Part shown: in pieces, positions 3,206-39,692 of the stretch
Layout of the letters: each line of letters starts with the position of its first letter
Numbering within the stretch: position 1 is the stretch's first letter
NCBI GenBank assembly: GCA_018710835.1
Contig: DVJC01000034.1
Location: forward strand, 1 to 39,692
From: Candidatus Limadaptatus stercoravium
Lineage (GTDB): Bacteria > Bacillota > Clostridia > Christensenellales > CAG-917
Direction of reading: 5' to 3'
Length of the DNA: 39,692 nt
Position numbers and translations under genes: made by a program
The notes under the pieces: generated by a model
What the model was told of the DNA's origin: nothing
What the model saw: only the letters and a program-made list of their open reading frames with translations
The model's database searches: none

Positions 3206-4219
3206 CGCGGCACGGGAACTCACACGCCACAACGTCATATCATCGCGCATAAGGCTTGCGCGCAACGTGCGCGGCATGTCTTTTCCGCACGTCGGCAGAC
3301 GGACCGATCCGGCTGCGCTCGCCGCATTGGAGAGAGCGGCGGTGCGCGCGGCGCAAGGGGTATTCGACTGCGAACTCCTGCGCATGAGCGGGCTGGACTC
3401 CGTCAAGAAGACCGCGCTTGTCGAGCGGCACCTCATTTCTCCCGCGCTGACGGCGAACACCGCCTCCGGCGCGGTGCTTCTGGAGCGCAGCGAGAGCGTG
3501 TCCGTCATGCTCAACGAAGAGGACAGGATAAGAGAGCAGTGCATAGTGCACGGTTTCGATCTGCCGCACGCTTACGGACGGCTGAACGTCTACGACGACA
3601 GGCTGCTTGACGAGATACCCGTCGCGTACGATCCCGAACTGGGTTTTTTGACCGCGTGCCCCACCAATCTCGGCACGGGGATGCGCGCATCCGTCATGCT
3701 CTTTCTGCCCGCGCTCAAACTCGCCGGAGCGATAGAGGACGAAGTGAACAGGTTCGTGCGCGAGTACGGCATGACCGTGCGCGGAGTTTACGGCGAGGGA
3801 AGCGAAGCGAAAGGGGATATGTATCAGATCTCCAACACGCGCACCCTCGGCGTGACGGAAGAGGAGATCATCTCCTCCGTCGAACGCGCGGCGCTTGAAA
3901 TGTGCCTGAGGGAGAGCGAGGCGAGAGAGAAGCTCGTGAGGCGCAAAGGCGCGGCTCTTTACGATAAAGTGGCGCGCAGCTACGGCATACTCACCAACGC
4001 CTACAAGCTCACTTCCGCAGAACTGATGAACATGATCTCCGACGTGAAACTCGGAGTCATTCTCGACATACTGCCGCTTAAAGACACCGAAACGCTGGAT
4101 AAACTGCTTGTTTGGTGCTCGGCGGCAAATCTCACTGCCGTCACGGGAGAGTGCTCCCCGACAGAGAGGGACATCCGCCGCGCGGCGATAGTGAAAGGCA
4201 TACTGCAAAAGGAGAAACT

Positions 4220-4223
<4 letters not shown>
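3198..4223 (+). CDS. mcsB: Protein arginine kinase (ATP:guanido phosphotransferase)
   Basis: SSRIRLARN, LTACPTNLGTGMRASV and TVRGVYGEGSE motifs of the McsB/phosphagen kinase catalytic domain. RBS aggagaagg. Confidence 0.93.
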
Positions 4224-6772
<2,549 letters not shown>

Positions 6773-6857: not shown

Positions 6858-7505
6858 TTAAAAAAATTCGCATTCTAGAAACTTTGGAATGTTGTGCCCC
6901 CTCCTTCCCTACGGGCTTTCCTCCCCCGTGCAGAATGTATTGTCGTACTCCCAAAATGCGGGACTAACGCCGTACCTCTGCAAGAGTTTTTAATATCGCA
7001 CTAACATAATCAAGCGGAGAACGGTAATCACCGAAATCCCTGCACGGGCGGAGGAAGGCGACTCGACGCGCAAGACGCCCGTGTCTACTTAGTGTTACGT
7101 CTAGCTTGCGAGGTCGCGGAGCGCGCCGCGGCGTTCAAGCGGCGGCTACGCCGCCTGTGAACGCTTGGGGTCCCCGCAAAAAATCTTCGTATTTTTTGTG
7201 GGGCTCCCTTGGGTGAGCGGCGCGTAGTTCCGTTTTCAAACGAGCAAACGTTAAGAAAAATAGTTTTCTTTCGTCTCCGAACAAATGAACGCTGGGTATG
7301 GGTTTTTCTTTTCCGTCTTTGAACGGGCAATCGTTAAGAAATGTTTTATTCCGTCTTCGGACAAGTGAGTGTTGAAAATAAGTTTGTTTTTCATCTTCGA
7401 ATGTGTGCTCGTCGTACTCAAGAACACTCCAAACAGGAGCGCCTAGCTCCGTTATTGAACTTGAAAATTTTCTTAAACACATTTTGCAAAAGGGGCGCGT
7501 CCCAA
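6858..7505 (-). repeat. Copy A of a dispersed ~0.6-kb modular non-coding element (inverted relative to copies B and C)
   Basis: The reverse complement is collinear with 30371-30876. Identical runs include ttcctccgcccgtgcagggatttc, gcgttagtcccgcattttgggag, cattctgcacgggggaggaaagcccg and agggaaggagggggcacaacattcc. It has five tandem ~40-nt sub-repeats (7200-7409). No reading frame is conserved. Confidence 0.85.
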
Positions 7506-7590: not shown

Positions 7591-7619
7591 TTGAATCGGG
7601 CGGGGAAGTTTGGTATAAT
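7591..7619 (+). promoter_or_regulatory. Sigma-70 promoter for hpf (ttgaat, 17 nt spacer, TG-extended tataat)
   Basis: ttgaat at 7591-7596, a 17-nt spacer, and tggtataat ending at 7619. RBS aggagg at 7634-7639. Confidence 0.65.
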
Positions 7620-10772: not shown

Positions 10773-11842
10773 TGCTGACTCTCGACGGATTTGCGGTGCA
10801 GTATCTCTACGGCGCGCGGCTGTTCGGCGGCGTTGACGCGGAGTTCCGCGACGGCAAGATCGTCGCCGTTTACGGCGGCGAAGGCAGCGGAAAGACCTCT
10901 TTTCTCAAAGCGCTGTGCGGCGCGGAACGCGCGGAGGGCAGTGTGCTCCTCGACGGAGAGCCGGTCGTGCCGAAGACAGATAAAATCGTTATGGTGTTCG
11001 ACGACGGCGCGGTGTTCGCGTCGAAAAGCGTGTACGACAACCTCGCCTATCCTCTGAAGATCAGAGGGTTTGACCGGGCGGAGATCGCAGTCCGCGTGAC
11101 TGCGGCGGCGGAGGAGACGGGCATAAGCGCATGCCTGAATATGCGCGCGCGCACGCTCTCTCCGGCGGACAGGCGGCGGATGTCGCTGGCAAGACTGCTT
11201 GTGAGAAAGGCGCGGCTGTACCTTGTCGACGAACCGGCGAAGGGATTGACGCGTGAGGACGCGGAGGGCGTGTTCGGCGATTTCATGTCCGCTGCGCGCA
11301 GACTCGCAAAAGACGGCGCGACGGTGATATATTCCACGTCCGACCGCGCGGAAGCGCTTGCTGCCGGCGGCAGAATCGCGGTGCTTGTGGACGGAGAGGT
11401 CAAGCAGATAGGGACATATGCGGACATACGCCGCGCGCCCGACAGCATATGGGCGGCACAGGCGATAGATCCGTATTACAATTTTCTGCCGTGCATCCTC
11501 GAAGAGCAAGACGGAGTGCCCCTCCTCGTGTTCGGAGAGGGTGACGCCGTTCGGGCGGATGCGCTCCGCGGCAGGACGGCGCCGGGATACATGCACCGCG
11601 AAGTGTATGCCGGGTGGTATCCGGGTGACGCGGACAGGAGCGGTAAGACTGCGCCGACCGACTGCGTGTCATGCGACGTGTCGGGCTATATACTGCGCTC
11701 CGCGGACGGGATATACGAGAGGTGCGGCGAGAGAAGGGAGCGCGTGTTCGTGCGGCCCGACGCGGCGAAGGTCACCCTTTTCGACCGCGCGAACGAGTGC
11801 AGTATAATGACGGACGGAGAAGTCGCGGAGGAGAAAGCATGA
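10769..11842 (+). CDS. ABC-transporter-like ATP-binding protein (MalK/UgpC-like) with degenerate catalytic motifs
   Basis: Walker A GGEGSGKT and Walker B LYLVDEP are present. The signature reads LSPAD, the Q-loop Gln is absent and the H-loop His is absent. A C-terminal regulatory-type domain is present. Both ends overlap the neighbouring genes. Confidence 0.7.
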   Translation: MMLTLDGFAVQYLYGARLFGGVDAEFRDGKIVAVYGGEGSGKTSFLKALCGAERAEGSVLLDGEPVVPKTDKIVMVFDDGAVFASKSVYDNLAYPLKIRGFDRAEIAVRVTAAAEETGISACLNMRARTLSPADRRRMSLARLLVRKARLYLVDEPAKGLTREDAEGVFGDFMSAARRLAKDGATVIYSTSDRAEALAAGGRIAVLVDGEVKQIGTYADIRRAPDSIWAAQAIDPYYNFLPCILEEQDGVPLLVFGEGDAVRADALRGRTAPGYMHREVYAGWYPGDADRSGKTAPTDCVSCDVSGYILRSADGIYERCGERRERVFVRPDAAKVTLFDRANECSIMTDGEVAEEKA

Positions 11843-12336
11843 TCATTCTCGGTATAGATCCGGGGCTTGCGACCATGGGCTACGGAGTGGTGGAAAGCGT
11901 GAAAGGCAACGTGTCCGTCGTGGACTACGGCGTCGTCACCACGCCTAAGGACCTCACTCTTCCGCAGCGGCTCAGGCGTATAGAAGAGGGCGTGACCGCG
12001 CTCATCGAAAAGTTCCGTCCCGAAAACATCGCCATAGAGGAGCTGTTCTTCTCCAAGAACATCACCAACGGCATCATGGTGGCGGAGGCGAGGGGAGTCA
12101 TTCTGCTCACTGCGGACAAGCTCGTCGGAGAGGAAGTCTACGAATATACGCCCAACCAGATCAAGCAGGCTATCACGGGCTACGGCGGCGCGGACAAAAT
12201 GCAGATGCAGCTTATGGTGCAGGCACTCCTGCGTCTAAAAAAGGTGCCGCGTCCCGACGACGCGGCGGACGCGCTCGCAGTCGCCCTATGCCATGCCCAT
12301 ACGAGCAGATTGTCCACGCAGTTCAAGGTAAGGTGA
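11839..12336 (+). CDS. ruvC: Crossover junction endodeoxyribonuclease RuvC
   Basis: MIILGIDPGLATMGYGVV...IEELFF...PDDAADALAVALCH carries the catalytic acidic residues. The ATG at 11839 overlaps the upstream stop. Confidence 0.93.
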   Translation: MIILGIDPGLATMGYGVVESVKGNVSVVDYGVVTTPKDLTLPQRLRRIEEGVTALIEKFRPENIAIEELFFSKNITNGIMVAEARGVILLTADKLVGEEVYEYTPNQIKQAITGYGGADKMQMQLMVQALLRLKKVPRPDDAADALAVALCHAHTSRLSTQFKVR

Positions 12337-12372
12337 TGAGCGGGGAAGATGTCGGAGTACGGTCGTCAGCGC

Positions 12373-12447
12373 GCGGCGGATGCGCTCGCAGTCGCCCTAT
12401 GCCACGCCCACACGAGCAGACTGTCAACGCAGTTCAAGGTAAGGTGA
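12373..12447 (+). repeat. Second, displaced copy of the last 24 codons plus stop of ruvC
   Basis: 70/75 identical to 12262-12336 at an offset of 111 nt, so it is in the same frame. All 5 differences are synonymous. Confidence 0.9.
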
Positions 12448-12572
12448 CCTGACCGCAAACAGACAAACGACGTGCGCCGGCACGCGGAAGTAACACCGCG
12501 TTTGCGCTGCGCGCATACAAGAAGAACGCGCCTGCGGAAGCGGAGCGCGGTCGGATACGAGAGGAGGAATAT

Positions 12573-28127: not shown

Positions 28128-30242
28128 ATGGAAAGAAAAATTTTCAAGACGACAGTCGGCGGCAGAGAGATGAGCGTTGAAGTCGGCGCTTACTGCGGTC
28201 AGGCGAACGGCAGCTGCATAGTGCGCTGCGGCGACACGGTGGTCATGGTCAACGCCACCATGGCGAAAGAGCCCCGCGAGGGAATGGACTACTTCCCCCT
28301 CAGCGTGGATTACGAAGAGAAGATGTACGCCGTGGGCAAGATCCCCGGCGGCTTCAAGAAGAGAGAGGGCAGAGCGAGCGACAAGGCGATCCTCACGGCG
28401 CGTCTTATCGACCGTCCCATCCGTCCTCTGTTCCCCAAGGGAATGTACAACGACGTGTCCGTGGTGGCGACGGTGCTCTCCGTGGACACCAACATTCCTC
28501 CGGAAGTTTTCGGAATGATCGGTTCGTCGATCGCGCTGTCCATATCGGACATTCCCTTTGCCGGTCCCACCGGCTCCGTGGTGGTCGGACTCGTTGACGG
28601 ACAGTACGTCATCAACCCCGACAGCGCGCAGAGAGCGAAATCCAAGCTGCACCTCAGCCTTTCCGGCACGCGCGACGCGATCATGATGGTCGAGGCGGGC
28701 GCGGACGTCGTCACCGAGCAGGAAATGCTGGGAGCGATCCTCTTCGGACACGAAGAGATCAAGAAGATCGTTTCCTTCATCGACGGCATTGTCGCGGAAG
28801 TCGGCAAGCCCAAGGTGGAGATCGAGCTGGAGACCATCCCCGCGGACATCGACGCGGCGGTGCGCGCGTATGCGGACAAGAAGATGGACTATGTCCTCGA
28901 GAGCTTCGACCGTACCGAGAGAGATCAGCGCGAGGACGCCCTCAACGAGGACGTGCTGGCGCATTTTGCGGACGAGTTCAACGACGTCGCCAAAAAGACC
29001 AAGTTCATTCTCGACAGCCTCTACTACCTCAAGAAGGAGAAGGTCCGCGCAAAGATCCTCGACGGCGGCGTGCGTCCCGACGGCAGAAGCCTTACGGACA
29101 TCCGTCCCATTTGGTGCGAAGTCGGTCTGCTCCCCAGAGCCCACGGCTCCGCGGTGTTCACCAGAGGACAGACTCAGGCGATGACCGTCGCCACCCTCGG
29201 CACCATCTCCGAAGTGCAGAAACTCGAAGGTCTTGACGACGAGTATTACAAGAGGTACATGCACCAGTACAACATGCCCGGCTATTCCACGGGCGAGGCG
29301 AAGCCTCTCCGCAGCCCCGGCAGACGCGAGATCGGTCACGGCGCACTCGCCGAGCGCGCTCTCGAACCCGTGCTCCCGAGCGAGGAAGAGTTCCCGTACG
29401 CGATCCGCACGGTCAGCGAGATCCTGAGCTCCAACGGTTCCACTTCCCAAGCTTCCGTGTGCGGCAGCACCCTGTCGCTTATGGACGCCGGCGTGCCCAT
29501 CAAGGCGCCCGTCGCGGGCATTGCAATGGGACTCATCAAGGACGCTGACCATCACAGAGTCGCAGTGCTCAGCGACATCCAGGGGCTTGAGGACTTCCTC
29601 GGCGACATGGACTTCAAGGTCGCAGGCACAGCCGAAGGCATCACCGCCATTCAGATGGACATCAAGATCAAGGGCATCGACGAGGAGATCCTCACCAAGG
29701 CGCTCGAACAGGCGCGCAAGGGCAGACTCTTCATCCTCGACAAGATGCTGAGCGTACTTCCCGAACCCCGTAAGGAACTCAGCAAGTGGGCGCCCAAGAT
29801 CGTGTCCTTCTCCATCGATCCCGACAAGATCCGCGACGTCATCGGCAGCGGCGGCAAGACAATCAACAAGATCATCGACGAGACCGGCGTCAAGATCGAC
29901 ATCAACGACGAGGGACAGATCTTCATCGCTTCCAACGATATGGACGCGATCGCGCAGGCGCGTAAGATCGTCGAGAACATCGTCCGCGACGTCGAAGTCG
30001 GCGACGTGTACGAGGGCAAGGTGGTCAAGATCATGGAGAACGACAAGGGACAGTTCGGCGCGAGCGTCAACTTTGCTCCCGGCAAGGACGGCATGATCCA
30101 CATCTCCAAGCTCTCCAAGGAGAGAGTGGACAAGGTCACCGACGTCGTCAACGTGGGCGACATCGTCCTCGTCAAGGTCATCAAGATCGACGAGAAACAC
30201 CGCGTGGATCTGCGCCTGAAAGAAATCATCAAAAAAGCCTGA
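28128..30242 (+). CDS. pnp: Polyribonucleotide nucleotidyltransferase (PNPase)
   Basis: Two RNase PH domains, a KH domain (GSGGKTINKI) and an S1 domain (GDVYEGKVVKI). The ATG at 28128 follows ggaaggag. Confidence 0.97.
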   Translation: MERKIFKTTVGGREMSVEVGAYCGQANGSCIVRCGDTVVMVNATMAKEPREGMDYFPLSVDYEEKMYAVGKIPGGFKKREGRASDKAILTARLIDRPIRPLFPKGMYNDVSVVATVLSVDTNIPPEVFGMIGSSIALSISDIPFAGPTGSVVVGLVDGQYVINPDSAQRAKSKLHLSLSGTRDAIMMVEAGADVVTEQEMLGAILFGHEEIKKIVSFIDGIVAEVGKPKVEIELETIPADIDAAVRAYADKKMDYVLESFDRTERDQREDALNEDVLAHFADEFNDVAKKTKFILDSLYYLKKEKVRAKILDGGVRPDGRSLTDIRPIWCEVGLLPRAHGSAVFTRGQTQAMTVATLGTISEVQKLEGLDDEYYKRYMHQYNMPGYSTGEAKPLRSPGRREIGHGALAERALEPVLPSEEEFPYAIRTVSEILSSNGSTSQASVCGSTLSLMDAGVPIKAPVAGIAMGLIKDADHHRVAVLSDIQGLEDFLGDMDFKVAGTAEGITAIQMDIKIKGIDEEILTKALEQARKGRLFILDKMLSVLPEPRKELSKWAPKIVSFSIDPDKIRDVIGSGGKTINKIIDETGVKIDINDEGQIFIASNDMDAIAQARKIVENIVRDVEVGDVYEGKVVKIMENDKGQFGASVNFAPGKDGMIHISKLSKERVDKVTDVVNVGDIVLVKVIKIDEKHRVDLRLKEIIKKA

Positions 30243-30876
30243 GGACACTATTTAGCGATCTGCTTTGTCAGCCCCCGTATTCAGACCTCTCACGTACGAT
30301 AAGTACGCTACGAGTCCTGAATACGGGGGCTTTCGCGCATATCATCTAAATATCGCGCCCTCAGATGACGTGCGCTTATTCAGGGAATACTTGAGTACGA
30401 CGATTGCTCGTTCGGAGACGGAAAAGAAAACTTATACCTGATGTTTACTCATTCGAAGACGGAATAAATCATTATTTTCTTGACGTACACTCGTTCGAAG
30501 ATGTTCCCACGCGCCGCTCAGCCAAAGGAGCCCCACAAAAATTCAAAGACTTTTTGTGGGGACCCCGGACTTGCACAGGCGGTGTAACCGCCTCTTGCAA
30601 GTCGCGGCGCGAAAAGTGAGTGCCGAGCACTAGACGAATACTTGAGTAGACACGGGCGTGAGTGTGCGAGCGCCGAATTCCTCCGCCCGTGCAGGGATTT
30701 CAGTGGGTACCGTTCTCCGCTTGGTTATGTGAGTGCGATACCAAAATTTTGGTATTCGTATAGCGTTAGTCCCGCATTTTGGGAGCACGGCACTCCATTC
30801 TGCACGGGGGAGGAAAGCCCGAAGGGAAGGAGGGGGCACAACATTCCCCGTGTGATTGCGGAGTTTATTGTTTTTT
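30243..30876 (+). repeat. Copy B of the dispersed ~0.6-kb modular non-coding element, starting directly after the pnp stop codon
   Basis: The 5' hairpin module is shared with copy C. The sub-repeats, two hairpins and the 3' domain are shared with copy A. No conserved ORF. Confidence 0.85.
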
Positions 30877-36755: not shown

Positions 36756-39110
36756 ATGAAGAAGAAAGTAACGATATTGCTTGTTCTCGTACTCGCGCTT
36801 TCCGTGCTTGTCGGTACGCTCGTCGGGTGCAATTCCATCATCACCCTCAACGAGGAAAGGGACGCGAATCAGGTGGTCGCCACCGTGAGTTACGCCGGAC
36901 AGACCTCGGAGATCTACAAGTATGAGCTGGCGATGAGTTTCAACTCCTACGCCTACATCTACCATGCCTACTACGACATGACCTATCAGGAAGCGGCGGA
37001 CTACATCCTGCAGTCGCTTGCCCAGCGCGAACTGCTCGTGCTCTTTGCCAAGGACGAACTCGTCAGCCTGCGCAACGAACGCGAGGGCAGGAACGATTCC
37101 CCCGCGGGCGTCTCCGTGGCGGACCTTCTCTCCGGCAGCGAGCTTGACCGCGCGATCGACAACGTCAACGACGACATCGTTTCGGCTATCAACACCGCGC
37201 TCGAGACTCTCATCAGCGCCAACAATCCTTCCTCTTCCACCGGCGGCTCTTCCGCCGAGTACGAGGAGTACAACGGTGCGGACGCGATCACGATCCGCTT
37301 CGATTCCAGGGGCGGCAGCACGGTTGACCGCGAGCGCATCCAGAACGGCACCGCGATCTTCGAACCTGCGGAACCCACTTACGACGGATACACATTCTAC
37401 GGCTGGTCCACGGAGCCTATCTCCGTTGACGAGGACATCGACACTTCTCTCATATGGGATTTCGACGACGAAGTCACTCTCGACATCGAAAACGGCGAGA
37501 AGAGCATGACTCTTTATGCGGTGTGGAAGCCCTATCTCGAACCCCGTCCCGTGCGCGAAGCGGCGGAGGAAGATCCCGACGCGGATTACGACCCCGACTA
37601 CGACATGCCAGAGGCGGAGTTCTCTCCCCACGCGCTCGGAGAGGACGGCAAGCTCACCGCCGCTTTCAGGGAACTGATCATGAACGGCGAGGTGGAGTTC
37701 GACTGCCTGGCGTCTTACTCCTCCGAGAAGAAGACGGAATATCTCAACGAATATCTCGACGACGCGGCGAAGAACGTGGCGGACGATTTCGCCTCTCTGC
37801 GTACGGATTACGACTATTATCTCGAAAACGAGATGAACACCCTGCTCATCACCAGACTGGAGCGCGAGATAGGCTCTTCGGCGTCCGTCAGCGACGAGGA
37901 AGTGCAGGCGCGCTTCGATCAGATGGTGGCAGCCAACCGCGAAGCCTACGGCGGCAACCGCACCTCTTACGAGTCCGCGCTGACCGGCGCGCTCTCCTCC
38001 GCTTATTACCACGAGTACACCTCCGCGGACGAGCGTTACGGATTCGTGCTCAACATTCTGCTGCAGCTGCCCGAAGAAGACCTCGCCGAGCTCACGCAGT
38101 GGGTCGAGGACGGGATCTATTCCGACAAGTCCGCCGTCATAGACAAACGCGACGAGCTTCTCCGTGCGCTTGAGATCAACGTCAGCAACCCCGATTACGA
38201 TCCCAACTACGTCTGCGACAACCATACCTGCGAGGCAGGCTCCGACTGCGATCCCATGACATGTCCGAATCACGCCTGCAAGGATAAGGTGAACGAGGAC
38301 GCGGATTGGAACCGGATCGTGGAGTTCGTCTACGATAAAGACACAGGCACGGCGGAGATCAGATACAACGTGACGGCGTGCCCGTCCATGGCGTATCTGC
38401 CCGGCACCGTCCCCGCGTTCACGCAGGAAGGAGAGAAGACCGGCATAGTGGAGCAGATCTACAACAGCCTCGCGCAGGTGACTCAGGCGGTGAAGGACGG
38501 CATGCCCGCAGTGCTCGGCGTCTACTGGACGCGCGAAGTCGCCACCGCATGGCTCTACCTCGTCGGCGACGACGCGGGCGGCACGTCCTCCGACTCCAAC
38601 AACGGCGGACTCGGCTATCTCGTCACCCCCGAAGGCACCGACTCCGGCTACATCGACGCTTTCACCGAACAGGCGCGCGCGCTCATCTCGGGCGGCGGCA
38701 CCGGCGCGTACACAACGGGCGGGCTTGAAGGCTCCTATGTCTTCGGCGACAACTTCATCGAGTCCGGTTCCACCAGCGGCGCGTATGCCGGCATCTTCAT
38801 CATTGTGGTGTCCGACGTGCCTTACGACACCGGTCTCAAAGGCGTGACGACGGACGCCGACGGCAATGCGAGTCAAATTGATCTTGCGTTCGGCGACGAC
38901 GGCATTCTGCCGCTCGATTACGTCATCGAATACGGTCCCACCCTTGAGGACTGCGTGACCATCCGCGAACAGATCAAGGACACCATCCTCACCAGCCGTC
39001 AGTCCGCGCTCTACGAAGAGAAGGTCAACGCCTTCGGCGTGGAGCACTACGAGAGCAACATTTCTTACAACAGAGGGGCGTACGAGTCGCTCTGGAAAAA
39101 CCTCGACTGA
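36756..39110 (+). CDS. Large PrsA/SurA-like lipoprotein with an inserted InlB-type B-repeat domain and a degenerate parvulin-like C-terminus
   Basis: Signal peptide with lipobox LVGC (Cys25). The SurA-N-like start reads NEERDANQVVATV...EIYKYEL. A Listeria-Bacteroides repeat signature is present (ITIRFDSRGGS...DGYTFYGWST...LYAVWKP). The C-terminus is parvulin-like (NNGGLGYLV...AFTEQARAL...GIFIIVVSD). The position after mfd is typical for prsA-like genes in Clostridia. Confidence 0.62.
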   Translation: MKKKVTILLVLVLALSVLVGTLVGCNSIITLNEERDANQVVATVSYAGQTSEIYKYELAMSFNSYAYIYHAYYDMTYQEAADYILQSLAQRELLVLFAKDELVSLRNEREGRNDSPAGVSVADLLSGSELDRAIDNVNDDIVSAINTALETLISANNPSSSTGGSSAEYEEYNGADAITIRFDSRGGSTVDRERIQNGTAIFEPAEPTYDGYTFYGWSTEPISVDEDIDTSLIWDFDDEVTLDIENGEKSMTLYAVWKPYLEPRPVREAAEEDPDADYDPDYDMPEAEFSPHALGEDGKLTAAFRELIMNGEVEFDCLASYSSEKKTEYLNEYLDDAAKNVADDFASLRTDYDYYLENEMNTLLITRLEREIGSSASVSDEEVQARFDQMVAANREAYGGNRTSYESALTGALSSAYYHEYTSADERYGFVLNILLQLPEEDLAELTQWVEDGIYSDKSAVIDKRDELLRALEINVSNPDYDPNYVCDNHTCEAGSDCDPMTCPNHACKDKVNEDADWNRIVEFVYDKDTGTAEIRYNVTACPSMAYLPGTVPAFTQEGEKTGIVEQIYNSLAQVTQAVKDGMPAVLGVYWTREVATAWLYLVGDDAGGTSSDSNNGGLGYLVTPEGTDSGYIDAFTEQARALISGGGTGAYTTGGLEGSYVFGDNFIESGSTSGAYAGIFIIVVSDVPYDTGLKGVTTDADGNASQIDLAFGDDGILPLDYVIEYGPTLEDCVTIREQIKDTILTSRQSALYEEKVNAFGVEHYESNISYNRGAYESLWKNLD

Positions 39111-39692
39111 GAGGGCGCTATTTAGCGAATAACTTTGTCAGGCGCATCAACGCGACCGCTTACGTACGGAAAGTACGCCGCGCGTCCGCGTTGATGCGCC
39201 TTTCGCGTTCTTCATCTAAAGGGGCTCCCCGCAAAATGTACATTTTGTGGGGTCCCCAGATCGCCCTCTCAGTTGACGTGCACTTATTTGGAGCGTCTTT
39301 GAGCACGACGTTCACTTGTTCGAAGCGTTCTTATACACGACGTGCGCTTTTCCGGGGCTGGAGCCGCCCAGCCAAAAAATACCCCACAAAAAATCCTTGC
39401 AGATTTTTTGCGGGGGCCCCGGACTTGCACATTGGACAGGGACAGAGTGCCGAACCGAAGGTCCAGCGATTGTTACGCGCGCAGCGCGTCAATCGCGTCG
39501 GGCAAGAAGTGCCGTACGCCGGCAATGCGCCATCTCTTCGCGAAGCGGGCGCATTACAAGTGGCATAATTTGCGGCACCGCAAAGGTGCCGCAATGCCGT
39601 CGCTCGTGCCCGAGCGCCGATGGTGTCCCCCGAAATGGTGGGTTCCCTGCAAGGGGGAACGATTTCGGGGGAAACCCGAAGGAAGGGGGTAA
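39111..39692 (+). repeat. Copy C of the dispersed modular non-coding element, starting directly after the stop codon and truncated by the window end
   Basis: It has the same 5' module as copy B (ctatttagcga...ctttgtcag, long hairpin, ctttcgcg...catctaaa). It also has 32-nt sub-repeats ending in acgacg, the ccccacaaaaaa/ttttttgcgggg hairpin and the 3' motif cgggggaaacccgaaggaaggggg. Confidence 0.8.

Follow-up and report, generated by a model that had tools for sequence, protein, structure and literature searches.

Three intergenic regions in the 39,692-nt window (the whole stretch of DNA that was analysed) carry related repeats, termed here copies A, B and C (Table 1). Copy A separates clpB (+) from hpf (+) and is antisense to both, while copies B and C each begin at the stop codon of the gene upstream, which for B is pnp. 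Self-BLASTN of the window returned the A/B pair as its strongest repeat, with 6886-7334 (-) aligned to 30400-30847 (+) (alignment length 458 nt, identity 78.6%, E = 3.8e-96). This bears out the initial annotation, which had read A on the minus strand as a homolog of B, and the five identical runs listed there were each found in both copies. Copy C had been counted as a third homolog of the same kind. It is homologous in parts, sharing with B only 69 nt (80%) and a 110-nt 5' hairpin (68%), but judged by its sequence it is assigned to a second subfamily, type 2, with A and B forming type 1. The purine tract cgggggaaacccgaaggaaggggg, once taken for the 3' end of C, is an internal tract: full type-2 copies run about 90 nt further 3' to the canonical terminus CACGGGGGAGGAAAGCCCGAAGGGAAGGAGGGGG, which for C falls beyond the window end.

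Exact occurrences of YTTGAGYACGACG in the window are limited to 7410-7422 (-), 30390-30402 (+) and 39298-39310 (+). All window matches to TTCGRAGACGGAA or YTTGAGYACGACG with zero or one mismatch lie in the three regions, with only weaker two-mismatch matches elsewhere, and all exact matches to the hairpin pattern CCCC..AAAA/TTTT..GGGG are likewise inside them. The part that B has in common with most of the ~130 copies found elsewhere spans only about 30509-30870. Most of the B tail, from ~30848, also occurs in a core-less strain allele (L127), so it is part of the locus rather than of the core.

Table 1. Features of the three copies, in window coordinates. SPE, small palindromic element.
Feature	Position	Strand	Remarks
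Copy A type-1 core	6897-7225	-
Copy A SPE	7167-7203		within the type-1 core
Copy A motif ii and sub-repeats	7226-7433	-	motif ii 7410-7433; five tandem sub-repeats 7226-7409
Copy B module i	30239-30364	+	~125-nt palindromic hairpin; outer stem CTGAGG 30239-30244 / CCTCAG 30359-30364
pnp stop codon	30240-30242		TGA, inside the outermost stem of copy B module i
Copy B motif ii	30375-30402	+	cttattcagggaatacttgagtacgacg
Copy B sub-repeats	30403-30508	+	three in tandem, ~41, 42 and 23 nt, around TTCGRAGACGGAA; the last abuts the core
Copy B type-1 core	30509-30836	+	ACGCGCCGC to GGAGGGGG; 328 nt with the inserted mini-hairpin
Copy B core helices P1 and P2			P1, CGCGCCGC/GCGGCGCG; P2, hairpin
Copy B core long-range helix			UUCCUCC.CCCGUGC/GCACGGGGGAGGAA
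Copy B SPE	30531-30566	-	GGGGTCCCCACAAAAAGTCTTTGAATTTTTGTGGGG on the minus strand; in the P1/P2 junction; hairpin iv of the initial annotation
Copy B conserved 3' purine tract	30803-30836	+	in the core
Copy B tail	30837-30876	+	terminator-like hairpin 30848-30861, then a T-run
Copy C module i	39107-39272	+	outer stem CTGAGAGGGC 39107-39116 / GCCCTCTCAG 39263-39272
Stop codon upstream of copy C	39108-39110		TGA, within the outer stem of copy C module i
Copy C SPE in module i	39227-39257		inserted
Copy C motif ii and sub-repeat	39283-39342	+	motif ii 39283-39310; one 32-nt sub-repeat
Copy C type-2 core	39360-39692	+	ended by the window edge before the terminal purine tract
Copy C SPE in type-2 core	39382-39420
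Copy C optional module X	39454-39499		in the type-2 core

Module families and their folds

The initial annotation took the regions for one ~0.6-kb element whose six modules follow the same order. They are instead composites of at least four module families, namely the ~125-nt palindrome, the 32-42-nt sub-repeats, the 31-39-nt mini-hairpins (SPEs) and the core of ~305 nt (type 1) or ~400 nt (type 2), which keep a preferred order and are also found solitary. The shared module order first noted holds to the extent that it is non-random: hairpin i, detected by BLAST, lay within 500 nt upstream of 26 of 91 cores, on the same strand in 26/26. The modules are nonetheless optional and separable, and six related contigs have hairpin i without a core 3' of pnp. 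Homology between copies drops off at several discrete points on either side, in keeping with modular flanks.

Type-1 cores are 303-314 nt long when free of insertions (63 cores). The core conserves a multi-helix fold through compensatory changes. In our core alignment (A4) 77 pairs were 91.6% paired, against 40-51% in slid controls; 23 pairs showed changes on both sides (3-8 in the controls), and the covariation score was 0.208 (0.03-0.07 in the controls), with no equally good result among 500 shuffles. The copy B core had an RNA fold z-score of -5.0. Type-2 helices covary too, with loops that are UUCG or GNRA-like. When C was aligned with nine other type-2 copies, it and its closest relatives (L045/L047/L051) differed from the rest by compensatory changes, for instance GGCGCC/GGCGCC versus GGCACC/GGUGCC, and CCCCCUAAAACC/GGUUUUUGGGGG versus CCCCCGAAAUGG/CGAUUUCGGGGG. 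Covariation across many aligned copies, which the initial annotation had wanted tested, was statistically supported in both the core and the hairpin i alignment (A5, below). The original description of the regions as non-coding was also sustained, as no frame is open in more than two of 48 diverse cores; a coding reading is rejected.

Cores carry extra hairpins at fixed sites, and on the purine-tract strand their helices end in UUCG, CUUG or GNRA-like loops. The 3' tract of 31 nt hardly varies, with at most one mismatch in 24 of 38 copies ascertained by their 5' end, and its mini-hairpin covaries. Alifold energies weakly favour the purine-tract strand (-54.2 versus -44.0 kcal/mol). Counts of G-U versus A-C were uninformative on strand because the predicted structure of each strand absorbs its own wobble pairs.

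For hairpin i, the alignment of 19 diverse copies (A5) had 33 pairs, 22 of them with compensatory changes, and 97.1% of paired cells were filled by pairs, compared with 33-48% in slid controls. The variable stems of B and C differ throughout and are both fully paired. Among 79 copies, 48 start 3-13 nt after a stop codon. The initial annotation saw no terminal inverted repeats; that is correct for the core, but module i has inverted ends (CTGAGG...CCTCAG). A ~125-nt palindrome that takes the upstream stop codon into its stem could make the coupling of translation termination and 3'-end structure directly testable.

Motif ii, assigned a 5' place in the original module order, does occur upstream of the core (33 of 83 copies) but recurs downstream (38/83), and the family consensus has it both upstream and ~35 nt downstream. 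As first noted, sub-repeat number varies: upstream of the 83 cores there were 0 to 5 units resembling TTCGAAGACGGAA, with five in A, three in B and one or two in C, where Tandem Repeats Finder reported 39275-39349 (period 32, 2.3 copies). The junction ...TTCGAAGACGGAAyA, followed directly by ACGCGCCGC, is present in nearly all copies. Because the 32-42-nt sub-repeats directly follow one another with no unique spacers in between, a CRISPR array was rejected.

The SPEs are REP-like mini-hairpins of 31-39 nt (GGGGnCCCC, A-rich arm, loop, T-rich arm, GGGG) inserted into other modules. Four lie in the window, and a regular expression found 38 in 722 kb of related loci. Hairpin iv, formerly treated as a regular module, is such a small insert in the core and is missing from most copies. 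The SPEs share the traits that define REPs (imperfect palindromes of 20-40 nt, high copy number, extragenic location) and are polymorphic between strains: a related SPE sits in the core of strain contig L124, at a position that is empty in L125, L131 and the window.

Copy number, strain alleles and genomic context

The family was found in eight species-level MAGs, every one of them from the Candidatus Limadaptatus clade, and a diverged relative occurs in Christensenella. CP091723.1 is among the element-positive genomes as a diverged case. At least 33, 23, 17, 16, 14, 8, 3 and 3 copies were counted per MAG; the genome collection gave more than 114 matches, and an independent 5' motif led to 59 further human-gut metagenome loci. 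Copies had a median identity of 87% inside a MAG and 73.5% across MAGs. Those in the CALVKQ MAG are 95-97% alike, and its housekeeping genes are ~81% identical to those of the window. The plasmid and phage collections gave no BLASTN match to the element, and two motif scans of viral contigs gave none either. A literature search on the conserved tract and the host genus found no description of these repeats, and the first 200 files in the supplement of PMC8040213 did not contain the tract.

Strains with identical proteins, and ~98% nucleotide identity as measured at the pnp/dUTPase locus, have several alleles at both locus B and the dUTPase-ftsK spacer. At locus B, a 39-nt SPE is inserted in the core of one strain, and exchange of the core cassette also occurs. 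Neither site showed a target-site duplication (the initial annotation had seen none in the window) or a clean filled/empty insertion. The strain alleles are replacements or cassette swaps and so do not demonstrate transposition, and gene conversion could account for the similarity within a genome.

Between species, copies are retained at orthologous positions where genes are ~81-82% identical. The orthologous clpB-hpf spacer of two species holds the element in opposite orientations. Orthologous sites may also hold different subfamilies: the window has type-2 copy C where contig L029 has a type-1 copy (~3 kb past the aligned mfd segment, where the position of C would fall), and a similar switch separates L015/L020 from L045.

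Core copies are concentrated at transcription-unit ends, without a common adjacent protein gene. With genes called by a codon log-odds model trained on called genes, 45 of 82 copies (55%) lay in convergent spacers, 32 in tandem and 5 in divergent ones, against expectations of 11.9, 58.8 and 11.3 (chi-square p = 4e-24). Orientation relative to the local gene strand was not significantly biased, either overall (52 versus 36, p = 0.11) or in tandem spacers (20 versus 12). Unrelated neighbours, the scarcity of copies in divergent, promoter-side spacers (5/82) and the antisense position of A led us to reject a cis-regulatory leader or riboswitch.

When ORFs within 1.5 kb of ~130 copies were clustered, no neighbouring protein recurred. 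The initial annotation saw no transposase, integrase or reverse transcriptase gene near the window copies; none recurs beside these ~130 GTDB-locus copies, and no recurrent ORF that might mark an autonomous relative adjoined them in the genome fragments covered. Tblastn of the related loci (partial genomes) with approximate IS200 TnpA and E. coli RAYT queries found, besides matches in Streptomyces, a truncated IS200-like Y1 transposase gene (L081:6783-7028), decayed, in an AT-rich island and unlinked to the repeats. Within copies A and B, the element strand had no match to a consensus sigma-70 promoter; the sole match, at 7591-7619 (+), lies outside A on the hpf side. Rfam 15 gave no match at gathering thresholds in the whole window, and E-value scans of A, B, a typical type-1 and a typical type-2 copy gave chance-level matches only (E at least 0.12, far below gathering), in agreement with the first impression that no Rfam family was recognisable.

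Interpretation and relation to known elements

We consider it somewhat probable that the three regions are local instances of lineage-specific, non-autonomous, structure-dependent interspersed repeats of the BIME/BOX/ERIC kind. The family tends to behave like selfish intergenic repeats of the REP/BOX type, with one unusually large and ornately folded unit of ~305 nt. Of the two identities first suggested, a new structured RNA or a new non-autonomous element, both stand, and population-level evidence leans towards the repeat element: copies number dozens per genome and have been amplified within genomes, strains are polymorphic for them, their placement is biased towards convergent spacers, and neither A nor B has a consensus sigma-70 promoter match. 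The modules would be non-autonomous selfish repeats in which selection maintains a single-stranded fold, as RNA or ssDNA, perhaps because the fold is needed for copying, conversion or tolerance. Spread and homogenisation might be due to a trans-acting enzyme encoded elsewhere, to homologous recombination between copies, or to both. The modules would be retained chiefly at the 3' ends of genes, probably as 3'-UTR structures transcribed along with the gene, and might have a secondary effect on mRNA decay or termination, as with REP and BOX. If so, a small clade of abundant uncultured Clostridia of the chicken and human gut gives a visible share of its intergenic DNA to layered structured repeats, the largest of which rivals ornate RNAs in complexity, yet shows selfish-DNA behaviour. 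The family would then be a test case for the upkeep of complex nucleic-acid folds in multi-copy elements that encode no protein.

Known mosaic repeats had been judged unlike this element, which overstates the difference; in organisation the element comes close to BOX (A-B(n)-C), BIME/REP and ERIC. The BOX elements known from Streptococcus pneumoniae (boxA-boxB(n)-boxC) likewise occur in Firmicutes, in roughly a hundred intergenic copies that encode no protein, and consist of modules in fixed order with variable tandem sub-repeats of ~40 nt, predicted stable folds and incomplete combinations. The BOX-like layout holds here as an analogy of organisation only (0-5 sub-repeats; hairpin i and core co-oriented 26 to 0). 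BOX modules measure 59, 45 and 50 nt, nothing among them corresponds to the 305-400-nt multi-helix core or the 125-nt stop-codon palindrome, and the host lineage is another. ERIC/IRU elements of Enterobacteria are imperfect palindromes of ~127 nt that lie between genes in transcribed DNA, and some variants, to which the SPE-bearing module i of copy C is comparable, have additional inserts at set internal positions; their sequences and host lineages are unrelated to ours, and ERICs are not known to embed the upstream stop codon in their stem. REPs have a GTAG-type 5' tetranucleotide and, within BIMEs, are regularly spaced in alternating orientation with defined linker motifs. SPEs resemble REPs of Enterobacteria and Pseudomonas, which are mobilised by RAYT Y1 enzymes, in size, palindromy, copy number, extragenic location and strain polymorphism, and BIMEs, too, combine palindromes with other motifs in mosaics that are enriched at the 3' ends of genes (BIMEs and RAYTs are described in PMC2817692). 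In contrast, the approximate queries found no RAYT in the genome fragments here, and BIME linker motifs are short, none being a 300-nt structured unit. The core is unlike a MITE in that it lacks inverted termini and that neither locus B nor the dUTPase-ftsK spacer shows a target-site duplication.

Besides the failure to find a mobilising enzyme or a clean insertion in the loci covered, two features run counter to the selfish-repeat reading. The 305-nt core, with its predicted long-range helices, fixed length and tetraloop-type caps, appears more elaborate than the described REP, BIME and BOX modules, as might be expected of a functional RNA. Copies have also stayed at orthologous sites in species with gene identities of ~81-82%, where they may be functional and not just tolerated. 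The core might accordingly be a multi-copy gene family for a trans-acting RNA, protein-binding or catalytic, with the flanks as processing or termination signals and the copy number serving dosage or diversification. We hold this to be unlikely. In its favour are the elaborate fold with its 23 covarying pairs, the constant length, the extra hairpins placed like expansion segments, the cap types and near-invariant 3' tract on the purine-tract strand, and the slightly better folding of that forward strand. Its features recall OLE, ROOL, GOLLD and the raiA motif/ModT, which are RNAs of 200-800 nt that occur in Firmicutes and have many covarying helices and GNRA/UUCG-type caps, and whose function was likewise not known at discovery. 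Those RNAs, however, are single- or low-copy and have characteristic gene neighbourhoods or prophage contexts, whereas the repeat cores number dozens per genome in unrelated contexts and match none of those Rfam models. A gene family is also hard to reconcile with the lack of an element-strand promoter match in A and B, the absence of a conserved neighbour gene, placement on either strand mostly between convergent genes, and tolerance of strain-level loss, cassette swaps and SPE insertions into helices. Its copies would moreover have to change subfamily at orthologous sites, as at C and L029 and at L015/L020 and L045.

Placement at gene 3' ends suggests another role, in which the modules are cis elements domesticated by the host as a barrier to 3' exonucleases, a terminator substitute, or a signal for translation termination or ribosome stalling, as reported for stop-proximal REPs. 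We regard this as distinctly unlikely. Hairpin i does begin just past the stop codon in most of the copies located and takes it into its stem, convergent spacers are strongly enriched, a terminator-like hairpin follows copy B, and the dUTPase-ftsK spacer has an intrinsic terminator in its element-less allele but none in the element-bearing one. However, copy A is antisense to both neighbours and 12 of 32 tandem copies are anti-oriented; the core has no U-tract, closely related strains lack the element at the same loci, and the 305-nt multi-helix fold is left unexplained. Such roles are compatible with selfish repeats as a secondary effect, and so do not form a true alternative.

The cores could also be an ornate structured RNA that is itself mobile, either SINE-like or ribozyme-bearing and spreading through an RNA intermediate, or integrating itself next to the TTCGRAGACGGAA sub-repeat; the palindrome and mini-hairpins would then be separate parasites of the same 3'-end niche. 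We deem this improbable.

It is very improbable that the cores are stand-alone RNAs of the guide or scaffold sort (omega-RNA, bridge-RNA or retron-like), or derivatives, without an ORF, of an RNA-dependent mobile element. They would be served by a protein encoded elsewhere (TnpB/IscB, an IS110 recombinase or a reverse transcriptase), and would account for a core without terminal inverted repeats or target-site duplication, its structured scaffold and highly conserved 3' end, the sharp constant 5' junction to a specific sub-repeat motif, and amplification within genomes. No such protein gene stands beside the copies in the ~130 neighbourhoods, though, nor did the Rfam models for omega-RNA/HEARO, group II introns or retrons match, and the viral, plasmid and phage collections hold no copy. 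There is no guide-like variable segment either, because the sequence adjoining the conserved ends is subfamily-specific, not copy-specific. PATEs, which are non-autonomous elements derived from IS200/IS605, are similar in lacking terminal inverted repeats and target-site duplications, in their single-strand hairpins and in a constant short upstream junction motif; they differ in that the core is far larger than PATE ends, no intact tnpA/tnpB is associated and there is no significant orientation bias.

That the copies, or their arrangement in the window, are assembly artefacts is scarcely credible: many copies do lie at contig ends (for example L009, L014, L017, L027 and L040), but the family structure is consistent across many samples and pipelines (ENA, NCBI MAGs, JGI) whose assemblies are independent, the 875-nt clpB-hpf spacing is identical in independent contig L121, L125, L130 and L131 contain the B core and tail at 97-99% identity, and misassembly cannot produce covariation. 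One junction may nonetheless be a recombinant or chimeric join, at 30239-30364 between pnp and the element. The join of pnp, hairpin i and the rest of B is unique to the window; the six contigs with the same PNPase continue to DUF3784 after the hairpin, and ten contigs with the same pth have a deaminase gene (nine) or a his operon (one) ahead of the core side. Identity of ~98% to L001, L003, L004 and L005 extends to 30364 and ends there, while that to L002 and L006 ends at 30252. Either a chimeric join or real recombination is plausible here, since the two hairpin i copies are 93.5-96% identical. As many contig breaks coincide with the repeats, and at least one join may be chimeric or recombinant, the repeats are likely to contribute to assembly fragmentation. 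The strain-variable spacers could be of use as typing markers for these MAGs.

Three copies and their modules

The window has a G+C content of 59%, with densely packed housekeeping genes, nearly all on the plus strand. Copy A is antisense to both of its neighbours, since it reads on the minus strand and they on the plus strand. In a self-BLASTN of the window, copies A and B aligned over 458 nt (78.6% identity, E = 4e-96). Similarity between B and C was confined to two stretches, a hairpin region of 69 nt (80%) and the 5' hairpin of 110 nt (68%). The identical runs quoted by the initial annotation were confirmed to be present, and its description of the copies as non-coding and outside any Rfam family held up: there was no conserved reading frame across 48 diverse copies, and Rfam 15 returned nothing for the window copies and typical relatives at either gathering or permissive thresholds.

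Repeat copies and modules in the window
Feature	Position	Strand	Context
Copy A	6858-7505	minus	between clpB (4112-6772, +) and the hpf/S30AE gene (+)
Copy B	30243-30876	+	after pnp
Copy C	39111 to window end	+	after the gene for a 786-aa Flg_new-repeat protein
Hairpin i, copy B	30239-30364	+	outer stem CTGAGG 30239-30244 / CCTCAG 30359-30364
Hairpin i, copy C	39107-39272	+	same palindrome type, stop codon in stem
Small palindromic elements (four)	7167-7203, 30531-30566, 39227-39257, 39382-39420		inserted into other modules

The initial annotation had described a single ~0.6-kb element of six modules. Instead we observed a mosaic whose modules are unequally covered and occur separately. Matches from ~120 related loci covered ~30580-30847 of copy B 100-130-fold, and its upstream 340 nt merely 2-24-fold. 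Anchored all-against-all comparison placed the region common to copies between about -325 and +90 relative to the conserved 3' purine tract, tapering on both sides. Hairpin i was missing from 71% of cores, and a core from 56% of hairpins i; when less than 500 nt apart, the two were co-oriented in 26 cases and opposed in 0.

Hairpin i is a ~125-nt palindrome, with 81 copies collected among related loci, whose outermost stem contains the stop codon of the upstream gene (TGA or TAA). This placement in the CTGAGG...CCTCAG stem means that the module shows a stop codon read inward from either side. It starts 3-13 nt past the stop codon in 48 of 79 copies, behind unrelated genes, and a second distance cluster at 133-186 nt represents second copies in tandem. 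Among 19 diverse copies, compensatory changes were seen at 22 of 33 pairs, and 97.1% of cells were paired, versus 33-48% in slid controls that ignore phylogeny. Unpaired motifs are conserved and G-U pairs nearly missing from the stems. The module also occurs without a core, single or as a tandem double, after pnp in six contigs with identical PNPase.

Next come motif ii and the 32-42-nt sub-repeats around TTCGRAGACGGAA, which number 0 to 5 units upstream of the core; motif ii is repeated ~35 nt downstream of it in 38 of 83 copies. The hairpin listed by the initial annotation as its fourth module is real, but it is not a fixed module: it is an inserted small palindromic element (SPE), missing from most cores. 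SPEs are REP-like mini-palindromes of 31-39 nt (GGGGnCCCC, A-rich arm, loop, T-rich arm, GGGG). One lies within the core of strain contig L124, with none there in L125, L131 or the window, and such variation between strain alleles otherwise 97-99% identical suggests recent mobility.

Sequence and fold of the core

Type-1 cores (A and B) span 303-314 nt excluding insertions, starting with ACGCGCCGC and ending with GGAGGGGG. The type-2 core of C has the same 5' stem and terminal tract around a different, longer middle. What had been taken for the 3' end of C is an internal tract; the window end cuts C before its terminal tract. Among copies ascertained via their 5' end, the 31-nt tract was exact in 17 of 38 and had at most one mismatch in 24 of 38, and its mini-hairpin covaried (GCCC..GGGA, UCCC..GGGG, UGCC..GGCG). 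An optional, expansion-segment-like module of ~45 nt (ACCGAAGGTCCAGCGATTG, hairpin, CAATCGCGTC) was noted centrally, before the long-range helix, in some cores of both types (39454-39499 and related loci L018, L049, L086 and L031).

Covariation was assessed in an alignment of 48 type-1 copies with less than 93% mutual identity, with an invariant 8-bp helix P1 enforced in the consensus structure. Relative to controls with slid partners, which ignore phylogeny, the 77 pairs had 91.6% versus 40-51% paired cells, changes on both sides at 23 versus 3-8 pairs, and a covariation score of 0.208 versus 0.03-0.07. None of 500 shuffles, likewise ignoring phylogeny, matched the real alignment in the share of paired cells, in the number of cells with double changes or in covariation score, and one attained 23 double-change pairs. 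Helices supported by covariation included hairpin P2 (e.g. CUUGCA/UGCAAG versus CGUUCA/UGAACG) as well as a long-range helix of 17 pairs, UUCCUCC.CCCGUGC/GCACGGGGGAGGAA, enclosing a multi-stem domain. Type-2 copies show compensatory changes of their own, with UUCG or GNRA-like caps.

Fold z-scores were good for both strands (-5.0 and -6.9), and the alignment fold weakly favoured the purine-tract strand (-54.2 versus -44.0 kcal/mol). With both strands folding well and so weak a bias, either strand, and either RNA or ssDNA, is possible.

Placement, distribution and strain alleles

Gene strands were called by a codon log-odds model that reproduced the known gene strands of the window. The 82 copies with both flanks called lay in 45 convergent, 32 tandem and 5 divergent spacers, against 11.9, 58.8 and 11.3 expected (p = 4e-24). 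Tandem-spacer copies were co-oriented in 20 cases and anti-oriented in 12, and copies showed no significant orientation bias (52 versus 36) with respect to the strand of most genes nearby. The element strand of A and B gave no consensus sigma-70 promoter match, and the terminator-like hairpin after B is part of the locus, not of the core. As the initial annotation had stated for mobility genes near the copies, no protein family recurred beside them. Among the loci collected, a Y1-transposase search using E. coli RAYT and IS200 probes left a single trace, a truncated IS200-like tnpA (L081:6783-7028, on a related contig; 81 aa, then frame-shifted). It lies in an AT-rich island beside a 250-aa ORF of unknown function, with no repeat module adjacent.

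Scanning GTDB, one genome per species, for the conserved 3' tract as an exact pattern matched at least 114 stretches; the matches listed fell in eight species-level MAGs of uncultured Clostridia, with six isolated exceptions in other lineages. The element-bearing MAGs include Candidatus Limadaptatus stercoripullorum and stercorigallinarum, and the eight held at least 33, 23, 17, 16, 14, 8, 3 and 3 copies. In human-gut metagenomes, a second scan with the 5' core motif found copies in at least 59 loci; viral contigs, plasmids and phages yielded zero. The whole composite is also present, diverged and with lower GC, on chromosome CP091723.1 of a Christensenella sp. represented by a complete MAG (L090:5210-5725). 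Its order is unchanged: hairpin i comes first, then motif ii, the sub-repeats and a core of ~220 nt with GGGGAAAGCCCGAAGGGAAGGAG at its end, so the family reaches beyond the Limadaptatus clade. True contig ends coincide with many copies. Assembly artefact was rejected as an origin of the family.

Median core identity was 87% within and 73.5% between MAGs, and the closest relative was in the same MAG for 42 of 63 core copies. Copies from different loci of MAG CALVKQ are 95-97% alike and share ~82% identity with those found elsewhere; for housekeeping genes, identity between the window and CALVKQ is ~81%. Homology between the most similar copies begins sharply at core base 1 and stops in discrete steps, which is consistent with modular flanks.

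Contigs with identical Pth had copy-B spacers of 455, 745, 893, 901, 988, 1003 or 1030 nt; a tenth had 83 nt and a different upstream gene. Alleles included an eroded relic without a core, a swapped core cassette (68% identity) and one with an SPE in the core. In the locus-B allele of L126 (2108-3000), the core end GGAGGGGGCACAACATTCCCCGCG precedes ~215 extra nt ending in a second copy, GGAGGGGGTACAACATTCCCCGCG, a direct repeat of the terminal motif that encloses a partial second element. Two alleles of the dUTPase-ftsK spacer, with identical flanks in ~98% identical strains (L001:15887-16170 and L005:15663-16279), had 205 nt with an intrinsic terminator versus ~500 nt containing a core and lacking an obvious terminator. 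The change was a replacement, with no target-site duplication. Element orientation is opposite in the orthologous clpB-hpf spacers of two species.

Among contigs compared, the join of pnp side to core side at 30239-30364 was found in the window alone. A DUF3784 gene follows instead in six contigs with the same PNPase, and in ten with the same pth the core is preceded by a deaminase gene or his operon. Because the join is unique and falls in a hairpin-i repeat ~95% identical between two loci, it is possibly recombinant or chimeric; it may reflect deletion or recombination between two such hairpin-i copies, or chimeric assembly.

Affinities of the repeats and further observations

The system fits lineage-specific, non-autonomous, structure-dependent interspersed repeats, which would be amplified or homogenised within genomes and survive mainly at the 3' ends of genes. 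BOX, BIME/REP and ERIC appear closest in organisation; by comparison, the present core is larger and more complex, and the palindrome embeds a stop codon. Secondarily, the repeats could plausibly act in cis within 3'-UTRs. We doubt that the core is a functional multi-copy RNA. Guide-RNA-type readings are unlikely, because flanks are not specific to each copy.

An MmeI-type restriction-modification gene lies between a radical-SAM gene and rpsO on related contig L003 (6770-9514). It is missing from L001, L002 and L004-L006, and the window aligns to L003 only flanking that segment. The window also contains a tandem duplication at 12260-12487 (111-nt unit, 2.1 copies; best pair 12261-12336 and 12372-12447, 93% identical), whose first unit shares its terminal TGA with ORF 11671-12336 (+).
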